Below are positions 54,366 to 58,628 of a DNA stretch of 64,000 nucleotides, piece by piece. The notes under the pieces were generated by a model. The model did no database searches. It was not told the DNA's origin and saw nothing but the letters and a program-made list of their open reading frames with translations. The DNA comes from Hadesarchaea archaeon (GTDB lineage: Archaea; Hadarchaeota; Hadarchaeia; Hadarchaeales; Hadarchaeaceae). The translations under genes were made by a program, and so were the position numbers. The DNA is taken from assembly GCA_030601675.1 (NCBI GenBank), contig JAUWBN010000003.1:2255-66254 (forward strand). The letters run 5' to 3'. Each line of letters opens with the position of its first letter. The stretch's first letter is position 1.

Positions 54366-54428
54366 TTAGCGCTTTTTCTTTCTCTTCACGAGCTTTCCGA
54401 GCCCACGCTTCCAGAGCATCGCTTTGAT
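54366..54428 (-). repeat. Direct repeat copy A: orphan duplicate of the last 63 nt of the 58566-59024 gene
   Basis: 56 of 63 positions match 58566-58628 with no indels, exactly 4200 nt apart. It encodes ...IKAMLWKRGLGKLVKRKKKR*, against ...IKAMLRKRGLGKLVKKKRKR* in the intact gene. Confidence 0.85.
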
Positions 54429-54448
54429 AAGAGCACTTGCAATTTGAT

Positions 54449-55234
54449 CTATCGCAGAACGATTTTATATTTGGGCGTTATCTTCAATTCCTTTCTCATC
54501 GGGCTAGCATCAGGGTTTATCGATTTGGCGACCTGGATGTGATATTTGGTCAACTTCTCCAACTTGGTGTTCACATATGCTACATTTGGGAAGATGCTCA
54601 CTACTCTATTCAACAGCGTTTCCGGCACGGCTTCACGGTTGATCGATGTTACGCCCGTTGCGCCTCTCATCTGAAGCCAAGACATCAGGGGCTCGATTAG
54701 ATCGCTGACCCCGCGCTCCCCGTAATAACGCGAGAGATGAGCTAGGTCGCTTATGGAAGTCAGGCGCCAGAATATCGGCTTACCCCACGTTTCTAGGTCC
54801 CCTAACAGCTTTACCATCCGCTCATAAATCTGTCCCGGCAGGAGTGAGAGATCTATCTGGGTTTCACAGTCCAGATTAGACTTGTACTCAGGCGGCGTCC
54901 AGAAATTAACAGCGAGGAGCCCCCCAATCTTGCCCGTTTTATCAAATTTTTTGTAGAGATCGGGCATGAGTGTTCGATACCTTTTGAGGGAGAGGCCCCA
55001 AGGCGAGCGGGTGGTCATGATGAAAGTTGGGTACCCACGGGCAGCGATGTTAAACGACGTAATCAAAACAGTTGAAGCGACGATGCCCTCCGCCTCTGGA
55101 TCCGAGACGAAAAGCCACGGGTAACCGGGCTGAAACCCTCCCCCAATAAACTTGTTGAGCGACCTAAAACCACTTTTAATAGGCAGGTTTGATTGCAGCC
55201 CACCATTCCTTAAATAAATGCTAGGTCCCGGCAC
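54449..55234 (-). CDS. Degenerate KaiC/RecA-superfamily paralogue lacking Walker A
   Basis: 261 aa. IKSGFRSLNKFIGGGFQPGYPWLFVSDPEAEG aligns with IKTGVPGFDKLLVHGIPRGANILISGGPGTGKT of the upstream ATPase, but the P-loop is replaced. Confidence 0.6.
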   Translation of the reverse strand: MPGPSIYLRNGGLQSNLPIKSGFRSLNKFIGGGFQPGYPWLFVSDPEAEGIVASTVLITSFNIAARGYPTFIMTTRSPWGLSLKRYRTLMPDLYKKFDKTGKIGGLLAVNFWTPPEYKSNLDCETQIDLSLLPGQIYERMVKLLGDLETWGKPIFWRLTSISDLAHLSRYYGERGVSDLIEPLMSWLQMRGATGVTSINREAVPETLLNRVVSIFPNVAYVNTKLEKLTKYHIQVAKSINPDASPMRKELKITPKYKIVLR

Positions 55235-55250
55235 GATTCACCACGCTCAT

Positions 55251-57656: not shown

Positions 57657-58443
57657 GGGGCAGGACCTCTAGGCCCCCTTCCCGTGATATGTTCATGGGC
57701 ACAATTTTGTTCGAGTGGTCTGCCCCACGCAGCTTCAGGATTTCGATGGCCCTCATCCTTATCCCCCGAAGTTTGAAATTATACAGGACAAAGGCCCCAT
57801 CGGCCAGAAATTCCTCCACTCCTGTTTTCGAGAGAACTTTTGGGGCTTCCACGGATTCGGATATCAAGAAAGTTGTCACCCTAGCCTTATCAAAAAATCT
57901 GAACAGTTGTTCTATGTAAACCCTATAACTCTCAGGTTTTCCCGTGAATGCCGACTCTAGGGCGGAGATGGAGTCCAGCACGATTACTTGTGGATTAAGG
58001 CCCGCGGGTATCAGCCCCTGAATCTCTTTTATTTCGATCGGCAATGTGCCCGCAGCCTCCTCGAGCAATGCCTCGACGGATTTTGCTGTTTTGAACGGAT
58101 CCATCCGTCTGACAGTGAATGAACCAGCTTTCTTCACCGCTTCAACATCCCAACCGAACATTCGCATATGTGCTTCAAGCCGCTCCGGTAGCTCTTCGAA
58201 CGTGACATAAAGACAGGTGAGGCCGCGACGTGCTAGGTTATAAAGCGTTTGTAGACAGAAAATAGTCTTGCCCGTGCCCGGCCCACCCGAGATGAGGATG
58301 TTGGCGCCCCGCGGTATCCCATGTACAAGCAATTTGTCGAACCCGGGGACCCCTGTTTTTATCCACTCGGGCACCGCGTGTTTTTTGCCTTTATTTGGTT
58401 TTTTCCGGCTTTTTTTCCTTTTTCGATGGTTAGTCATGCCCAT
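57628..58443 (-). CDS. Single-domain KaiC-like (RecA-superfamily) ATPase with a poly-basic N-terminal tail
   Basis: 271 aa with Walker A GGPGTGKT and Walker B-like VIVLDSISALE. The N-terminus has 11 Lys/Arg within residues 7-21. Confidence 0.8.
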   Translation of the reverse strand: MGMTNHRKRKKSRKKPNKGKKHAVPEWIKTGVPGFDKLLVHGIPRGANILISGGPGTGKTIFCLQTLYNLARRGLTCLYVTFEELPERLEAHMRMFGWDVEAVKKAGSFTVRRMDPFKTAKSVEALLEEAAGTLPIEIKEIQGLIPAGLNPQVIVLDSISALESAFTGKPESYRVYIEQLFRFFDKARVTTFLISESVEAPKVLSKTGVEEFLADGAFVLYNFKLRGIRMRAIEILKLRGADHSNKIVPMNISREGGLEVLPREHLYGIEE

Positions 58444-58565
58444 TACCCATTATCCTTTGACGCACACTTTAACTTATGATTTTACCTTTAACTAGATTCT
58501 GGGGGCCTCGGGATCTGGCGAGTGAAAATGAATCGTTTACATGCGCATCAGAGTTAATTTCGAGT

Positions 58566-58628
58566 TCAGCGTTTCCTCTTTTTCTTCACGAGCTTGCCGA
58601 GCCCACGCTTCCGGAGCATCGCTTTGAT
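58566..58628 (-). repeat. Direct repeat copy B (3' end of the membrane-protein gene)
   Basis: See 54366-54428. Confidence 0.85.

Follow-up and report, generated by a model that had tools for sequence, protein, structure and literature searches.

A duplicated membrane-protein gene end around a KaiC/FN3 module in a Hadarchaeota genome: an ordinary recombination scar, probably left by gene-end displacement

Introduction

Two closely similar copies of a 63-nt sequence lie 4.2 kb apart in a 64-kb window (the whole stretch of DNA analysed, on contig G000:C6) of G000, a Hadarchaeota (Hadesarchaea) metagenome-assembled genome (MAG) of 937,688 bp (0.94 Mb) in 35 contigs. The block of 4.2 kb between copy A and copy B contains a module of three genes, for a KaiC ATPase, an FN3 surface protein and a 261-aa P-loop-less protein (dKaiC), and copy B is the 3′ end of the gene for a 152-aa membrane protein (Mem). 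The locus raises the question of how a gene end came to stand on both sides of this module, and which of its two copies is the working one. Integrase-mediated integrative elements insert at gene 3′ ends, whether of tRNA or of protein genes, and bring a replacement for the end with them. The evidence gathered here favours a different origin, in which copy A is probably the dead end of a displaced Mem and copy B the working end of the Mem that is linked to the module. The pair is an ordinary recombination scar, and neither a new mobile element nor a new mechanism is involved.

Results and discussion

The repeat pair

The features on which the question turns are as follows.

54366..54428, minus strand: copy A, probable orphaned last 20 codons and stop codon of a displaced Mem; non-coding
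58566..58628, minus strand: copy B, functional end (last 20 codons and stop codon) of Mem_152
58566..59024, minus strand: Mem_152, a small protein that spans the membrane several times and ends in a basic C-terminal tail; the anchor gene, conserved across the order

Alignment of the two copies confirmed the repeat as described in the first-pass annotation of the window, with 56 of 63 positions identical, no gaps and a start-to-start distance of 4200 nt; the core of the gapless alignment (54368-54428 / 58568-58628) comprises 61 nt at 90% identity. The chance of such a pair over all position pairs in 64 kb is ~1e-17 by our own estimate. Copies A and B are the only occurrences of the 63-mer in the whole assembly, which disposes of the alternative, foreseen in the same annotation, of a dispersed element unrelated to this locus. 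The longest exact matches between copy A and copy B measure 13-16 nt, which is not enough for an assembler to have joined contigs at this place.

The order on the minus strand is Mem_152, a 122-nt spacer, KaiC, the 801-aa surface protein, the 261-aa protein, 20 nt, copy A, a ~160-nt spacer, a luciferase-like gene (Lux) and acetyl-CoA synthetase (ACS). Copy B matches the last 20 codons and stop of Mem, the true 3′ end of that gene as had been claimed, and reads ...EIKAMLRKRGLGKLVKKKRKR followed by the stop. Copy A begins 20 nt past the TAG of the 261-aa open reading frame (ORF; 54449-55234, minus strand) and reads LIKAMLWKRGLGKLVKRKKKR in the -1 frame, with a stop at the position homologous to that of copy B; the earlier description of it as an off-frame tail behind the KaiC-like gene was accurate.

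The empty site in the closest relative

The closest relative, G010, is ~97% identical in the flanks (95-99% at the amino-acid level for the flanking genes), and its gene order is ACS-Lux-(~180 nt)-Mem-EndoIII-SWIM-KsgA-EF2, from which the 4.2-kb block is absent. BLASTN aligns window 50968-54428 with G010 6638-10114 and window 58577-64000 with G010 10063-15486, and the two alignments overlap by 52 nt on the single tail of G010. A site lacking the cluster and bearing one 63-mer, which the first-pass annotation had proposed to seek in related genomes, is present in G010. The block is present or absent precisely where the membrane-protein gene ends, in agreement with the insertion proposed there and with copy B as the working end.

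53222..54202, minus strand: Lux, an F420-type oxidoreductase (PF00296), the resident downstream flank

Lux is 96.6% identical to its G010 counterpart in amino acids and ~98% in nucleotides, and in G010 it stands ~180 nt from Mem. When metagenome and genome collections were scanned for exact patterns that might reveal closer strains, a 42-mer from upstream of Lux gave 0 matches and the tail pattern matched only in G010, in G011 and in one contig like G012; exact-protein look-ups of Lux and Mem gave no record. G010 also carries an extra 5.6 kb (L015 998-6638) that is absent from G000 between window 50951 and 50968, and that encodes a thermosome subunit, a winged-helix regulator and a radical-SAM protein.

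Copy A as a stranded gene end

The sequence on either side of copy A is made up of two short stretches of different character.

54429..54448, minus strand: 20 nt of native sequence downstream of dKaiC, up to the copy A junction; resembles the start of the sequence behind the dKaiC stop in L036 and L049
54299..54365, minus strand: Mem-type downstream spacer with palindrome CACACGTGTG (54341-54350) and a T-rich run; unalignable with G010

The frame of copy A is open for 32 codons only, starting after a TAA at 54467-54465, and belongs to no listed ORF. Copy A shows three amino-acid changes, two of which are K/R swaps, and an R to W change, unique to this copy, falls within the motif ML[RKQ]KRG that is conserved elsewhere. 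Directly behind copy A stands CTTCACACGTGTG; in G005, G007, G008 and G012, too, the stop of Mem has a CTTCACACGTGTG-like motif behind it. As judged from the sequence, the Mem-type spacer with its palindrome, the R to W change and the lack of an ORF mark copy A as a stranded gene end and not a working one. The join between dKaiC and copy A carries ATCAAA/ATAAA, and ATCAAA is a possible microhomology.

Copy B and the Mem gene

Mem was found in 37 of 41 relatives, and no Pfam family matched it. Positions 13-63 of copy B differ from the G011 tail at one of 51 positions, the whole Mem genes being 80% identical, and two features of copy B, GGC-AAG and AAG-AGG-AAx-CGC, are common to G016 and L036. 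The spacer that connects Mem to the module carries a further conserved feature.

58444..58565, minus strand: Mem-KaiC spacer with promoter-like box AAAGGTAAAATCATAAGTT (58471-58489), conserved with respect to the L036 spacer

Conservation of this box in the equivalent spacer of L036 marks the Mem-KaiC junction as native. G000 diverges from G010 by 7.06% within Mem (58577-59100), as compared to 0.67% in the 900 nt that follow and 2.69% in the remainder of the right flank, and the excess in Mem over that remainder is significant (Fisher p = 1.7e-6). Seven of the Mem alleles private to G000 also occur in G016 (four of them in G016 alone), as compared to none of those private to G010.

As listed, the Mem and EndoIII ORFs are divergent and overlap by 80 nt (window 58945-59024). 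Mem homologues begin later (MVTDLSAI... in G016; 114-134 aa), so the true start of Mem probably lies downstream of the listed ATG.

The module in other Hadarchaeota

The module occurs elsewhere in the phylum, where it is rare and decaying: it was found in three of 66 species genomes, with remnants in G016 and G024. L036 has the order EF2-KsgA-SWIM-AspK-EndoIII-Mem-KaiC-FN3-dKaiC-CitG, and in G005, G012 and L039 Mem adjoins CitG directly, without the module. The module is followed by formylmethanofuran-dehydrogenase genes in L034 and is convergent with an HD hydrolase gene in L049; a module remnant also lies beside HD in G016. In L036, L037, L034, L048 and L049 the module stands without a second Mem tail. 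The second tail was sought by blastn-short, by Smith-Waterman alignment with shuffles and by anchored ungapped comparison, and no decayed tail behind dKaiC reached significance in L036, L034, G016, L048 or L049 (best 22/63, p ~0.06).

Two relatives shed light on how the locus arose. In G016, which belongs to another genus (L019 7085-7255), the Mem stop is fused to dead dKaiC codons ~205-261 at 75% nucleotide identity, and the junction falls on a 10-mer.

54614..54623, minus strand: GGAAACGCTG, 10-mer inside dKaiC, also present at the end of copy B (58567-58576); end points of the G016 deletion

This 10-mer occurs exactly twice in the window as compared to 0.13 expected occurrences. The ancestor of G016 therefore had the order Mem-KaiC-FN3-dKaiC, most of which was lost by a microhomology deletion, and the fusion at GGAAACGCTG is a clean case of this kind of loss. 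On the L048 contig (SRR17498766), whose backbone is like that of G024 (ACD 90% identical in amino acids), dKaiC is preceded by FN3 and followed, after 163 nt, by a complete Mem and then ACD, so that a whole Mem occupies the position of copy A.

In G024 (L033, G024:C50 8825-9440), an inverted FN3 fragment lies beside a stop-containing C-terminal fragment of dKaiC. The KaiC gene of L036 is split into ORFs of 148 and 128 aa (5659-6495).

Probable gene-end displacement

A working end at Mem and an orphan end beyond the insert, together with a cargo that is natively linked to Mem in L036, in the G016 remnant and in L048, are the observations expected of a displaced gene end. DNA from a relative with a Mem-linked module would have entered the G000 lineage and recombined by homology within Mem or within the conserved genes upstream of it, and its other end would have been joined illegitimately. 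This second join may have been made directly inside the resident Mem, at its codon 132, with ATCAAA at the point of joining or close by. Alternatively, it may have been made upstream of the resident Mem to give Mem-module-Mem, as L048 suggests, and a later deletion would have removed most of the second gene. By either route the last 63 nt of the resident Mem and its native spacer would have been stranded between the module and Lux.

The repeat, the empty site, the native linkage of Mem and module in other genomes, the decay remnants and the lack of a recombinase are direct observations; whether G000 gained the module or G010 lost it, and by what chemistry the far end was joined, is what we infer from them. 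Gain in G000 is the more parsimonious, because the order HD-TBP-HD 3′ remnant-ACS-(Lux)-Mem without the module is genus-wide, being found in G010, G011, G003 and G004.

Several observations weigh against displacement by an incoming Mem. Over the first 51 nt of the tail, copy A differs from G010 at 4 positions and copy B at 3, so that the two are almost equally distant and the tails alone do not tell which copy is resident. The private Mem substitutions, when polarised with G005 and G012 as outgroups, are spread over both lineages with no clean breakpoint; the Mem genes of G000 and G010 are mutual nearest relatives (92.4%), and no clean donor tract is visible. G010 is unalignable to the surroundings of either copy from tail position ~55 through its ~100-nt spacer; it is thus not a pristine empty site, and either direction of change needs one extra event. 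Neither the unique 107-nt spacer of G010 nor the 70-nt spacer of copy A has a BLAST match in the window, the genome or all loci. The copy-A junction is known from a single metagenome-assembled contig. No genome came to light as a donor, 78% being the highest identity among the dKaiC matches.

Similar scars elsewhere in the genome

Self-comparison of the genome revealed at least two gene-end duplication scars beyond that of Mem. A 77-nt direct repeat at 86% identity (window 6277-6353 / 7500-7575; G000:C6 8531-8607 / 9754-9829) is made up of the final codons and stop, together with the terminator (hairpin and T-run), of the gene for a 1125-aa surface protein and brackets a nucleotidyltransferase (MNT)-HEPN pair; the site is empty, with one copy, in G010 and G002, and is occupied in G009. 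The 3′ end of the HD-hydrolase gene (49700-49850) recurs as a remnant at 51006-51156, beyond TBP (and RAM) and beside ACS. Since the order HD-TBP-HD remnant-ACS is also present in G010, G011, G003 and G004, this scar predates the radiation of the genus. A further repeat of 62 nt at 94% identity, D1 (50464-50525 / 50985-51046), lies upstream of TBP and downstream of ACS.

On another contig, the end of a glycerate-kinase-like gene (~28 codons and stop) is duplicated at 79% identity (G000:C13 4761-4850 / 6319-6407) around a signal-peptide serpin gene that is unique to G000 within the genus. A search for a clean empty site at the serpin locus gave none, the relatives carrying its two flanks on different contigs. 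In G010, a 13.4-kb island (C68 16146-29553, L042/L025) between aIF5B and S6e, absent from G000 (C21 3502-3511), is bracketed by the 10-nt repeat GGGGTGATGT, which restores the aIF5B stop. The island encodes a histidine kinase, a solute-binding protein, a response regulator, a 195-aa protein, a KaiC (302 aa) and an FN3 protein (794 aa), and its KaiC-FN3 pair is paralogous to that of the module (62 and 68% identical, respectively). That the repeats vary in length (10, 63, 77, 90 and 151 nt) speaks for recombination by the host and against the work of one site-specific enzyme.

A 72-nt direct repeat at 90% identity was also recorded on G000:C31 (17035-17103 / 21229-21300), with a spacing of 4194 nt and its first copy inside a 202-aa ORF.

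It is conceivable, though doubtful, that gene-end displacement is the main integrase-free route of accessory-cassette exchange in Hadarchaeota. Under this proposal the two copies of a gene end would let host recombination loop the cassette out as a circle, which after transfer would insert again at the corresponding gene end of a recipient cell. In this genome the tail of Mem, like further gene ends, would then be a docking site for a shared pool that comprises KaiC-FN3, MNT-HEPN, serpin and TBP.

Alternative explanations

The polarity of the event may be reversed, such that the module behind Mem is ancestral, and either G010 lost it or the Lux-ACS block brought in a donor Mem-end fragment, which is copy A. 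The linkage of Mem and module is indeed old and widespread, as evident from G016, L036 and L049; the segment HD 3′ remnant-ACS-Lux-Mem 3′ remnant is bounded by remnants of both genes that flank the module in G016; the G010 tail mixes A-like and B-like states; and paired 63-nt repeats are a natural substrate for deletion. However, a simple crossover between A and B would leave the downstream spacer of copy A in G010, where it is absent, and the module-free HD-TBP-HD 3′ remnant-ACS-Mem order of G011, G003, G004 and G010 would need several independent precise losses. Reversed polarity is considered unlikely.

A site-specific integrative or cis-mobilisable element, with the 63-mers as attL and attR and the integrase lost or encoded elsewhere, would explain direct repeats exactly at the ends of the block, the single-copy empty site and the restored gene end. 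The first-pass annotation had likened the block to such elements and described it as a cluster of lower GC content. The GC content is slightly lower (0.517 as compared to 0.5515 for the genome), but the block is no outlier among 4.2-kb windows, standing at the 13th percentile for GC and the 73rd for tetranucleotide distance, so that its composition is host-like. None of the three ORFs of the block is a recombinase, integrase or transposase, and PF00589 matches in the genome lie only on contigs C8 and C16. Furthermore, four other genomes have the module beside Mem with no second repeat, the two repeats are only 89-90% identical, and the analogous scars with repeats of 10, 77, 90 and 151 nt do not fit one enzyme. 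The likeness drawn to integrative elements was not borne out, and such an origin is quite improbable. With respect to the class as a whole, repeats at the ends and an empty site are present, and two defining features, a recombinase and a second att site at other occupied sites, are lacking; the assignment was rejected.

The orphan tail may itself be functional, through a -1 frameshift onto the 261-aa protein, as a small ORF, or as a 3′-untranslated or terminator element. The frame and stop of copy A are intact, two of its three changes are K/R swaps, and transcription of the module could end at the palindrome and T-run that follow it. On the other hand, all 16 dKaiC homologues end without an extension, at the same stop as the 261-aa protein, whose fold is complete; the tail frame opens only five codons before that stop, and no slippery X XXY YYZ heptamer lies in this stretch. 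Other module-bearing genomes lack such a tail, and the R to W change falls in a conserved motif. A functional tail is very improbable, and the frameshift raised in the first-pass annotation is rejected.

An assembly chimera of two co-existing strains, with and without the module, to which a MAG in 35 contigs with the copy-A junction on this contig only might point, is hardly credible, as A and B have no exact run longer than 16 nt in common and what lies left of copy A has no more than 6-9 nt in common with Mem upstream of copy B, so that no usual k-mer could bridge the copies, and both flanks agree with independent genomes.

Genes of the module

The three genes that would have been carried by the incoming Mem are encoded as follows.

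57628..58443, minus strand: KaiC-like single-domain RecA-superfamily ATPase, 271 aa (PF06745, E = 7.9e-55, residues 28-264), with Walker A GGPGTGKT intact
55251..57656, minus strand: 801-aa surface protein with signal/anchor, Ig_Rha78A_N, Big_13 and fn3 domains, a C-terminal transmembrane helix and a coiled-coil basic tail
54449..55234, minus strand: dKaiC, 261-aa P-loop-less KaiC-fold protein in which SDPEAEG replaces Walker A

The KaiC ATPase is 76% identical to its L036 orthologue and 62% to the paralogue at the aIF5B locus of G010. Residues 320-800 of the surface protein are conserved in relatives, and its N-terminal ~320 residues are without a counterpart in homologues; the G010 homologue has a repeat-rich (YAGT/DGSTWS) N-terminal region in place of residues 1-320, and L036 matches at residues 312-423 and 657-777 only. 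The unmatched N-terminal part suggests that the exposed portion of the surface protein is swapped between lineages.

The dKaiC family has 17 members including that of the window, all ending at the same terminal residue with ...K(Y)xIxLR. At the Walker A position the family shows an invariant ...W-L-x-x-x-D-x-E-A-E-G... and no GxxxxGK[ST]. The AlphaFold (AF2) model of dKaiC is complete and confident (pLDDT 86), and its best Foldseek matches are KaiC CI, PH0284, PH0186 and FlaH, with TM scores of ~0.7 (0.68-0.71 for KaiC CI and PH0284) and, for the first three, E ~1e-10. No sequence-level match was obtained by Pfam, by PDB sequence profile or by BLASTP against the 271-aa KaiC. The first-pass label of a degenerate KaiC holds at the level of fold (TM ~0.7), whereas every sequence search for it came back empty; as modelled, dKaiC has the KaiC/RecA fold and has lost Walker A. 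The family comprises ~20 members in 5.8 billion proteins, all apparently Hadarchaeota-like; within the phylum, three of the 66 species genomes have it.

Significance and comparison with known systems

The locus provides a dated, base-level example of how accessory modules come and go in very small, uncultured archaeal genomes (~1 Mb) in which no mobile-element machinery takes part, and the empty site, the intact relatives and the remnants of decay are all on hand. It flags the trio of KaiC, FN3 and P-loop-less KaiC as a horizontally shuffled and often lost surface module of Hadarchaeota. Short gene-end duplications of this type could serve as markers for mapping such gains.

The cargo finds its parallel in archaeal single-domain KaiC-like ATPases with inactivated paralogues (PH0284, PH0186, ArlH/FlaH). 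The 271-aa protein is a standard PF06745 member and the 261-aa protein has the same fold; in contrast to the KaiC/RecA superfamily at large, the 261-aa family is without Walker A and is undetected by Pfam or PDB sequence profiles.

With integrase-mediated elements, the block has in common the bracketing direct repeats, an intact target gene and a one-copy empty site in a relative. It differs from them in the absence of an integrase, in repeats of 89-90% identity, in native attachment without a second repeat elsewhere and in host-like composition.

C-terminal displacement that leaves orphan ends has been described for rhs loci (Jackson et al. 2009, to the extent that it is cited in PMC5361080), and a displacement model has been given for the effector-immunity arrays of the Vibrio cholerae type VI secretion system (T6SS) (Kirchberger et al. 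2017, PMC5361080). The likeness lies in incoming DNA that would bring its own conserved anchor end and new genes while the old end is left downstream as an orphan, in the lack of a dedicated recombinase, and in presence or absence among relatives at the same spot. Unlike these loci, the anchor here is a small housekeeping-like archaeal membrane gene and not a polymorphic toxin, a single orphan is present in place of an array, and the KaiC/surface cargo bears no sign of toxin-immunity logic.

The authors of PMC5361080 credit effector displacement to homology-facilitated illegitimate recombination (see also PMC3240628), a process attributed, in the accounts given in PMC5361080 and PMC3240628, to de Vries & Wackernagel 2002, Prudhomme et al. 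2002 and Meier & Wackernagel 2003. The experiments on it were made in bacteria only, and here it is deduced from comparative sequence. The Hadarchaeota locus resembles it in its one-sided anchor (Mem and the upstream genes), in a non-homologous far join that possibly involves microhomology, and in the raised divergence of the anchor beside the insert.

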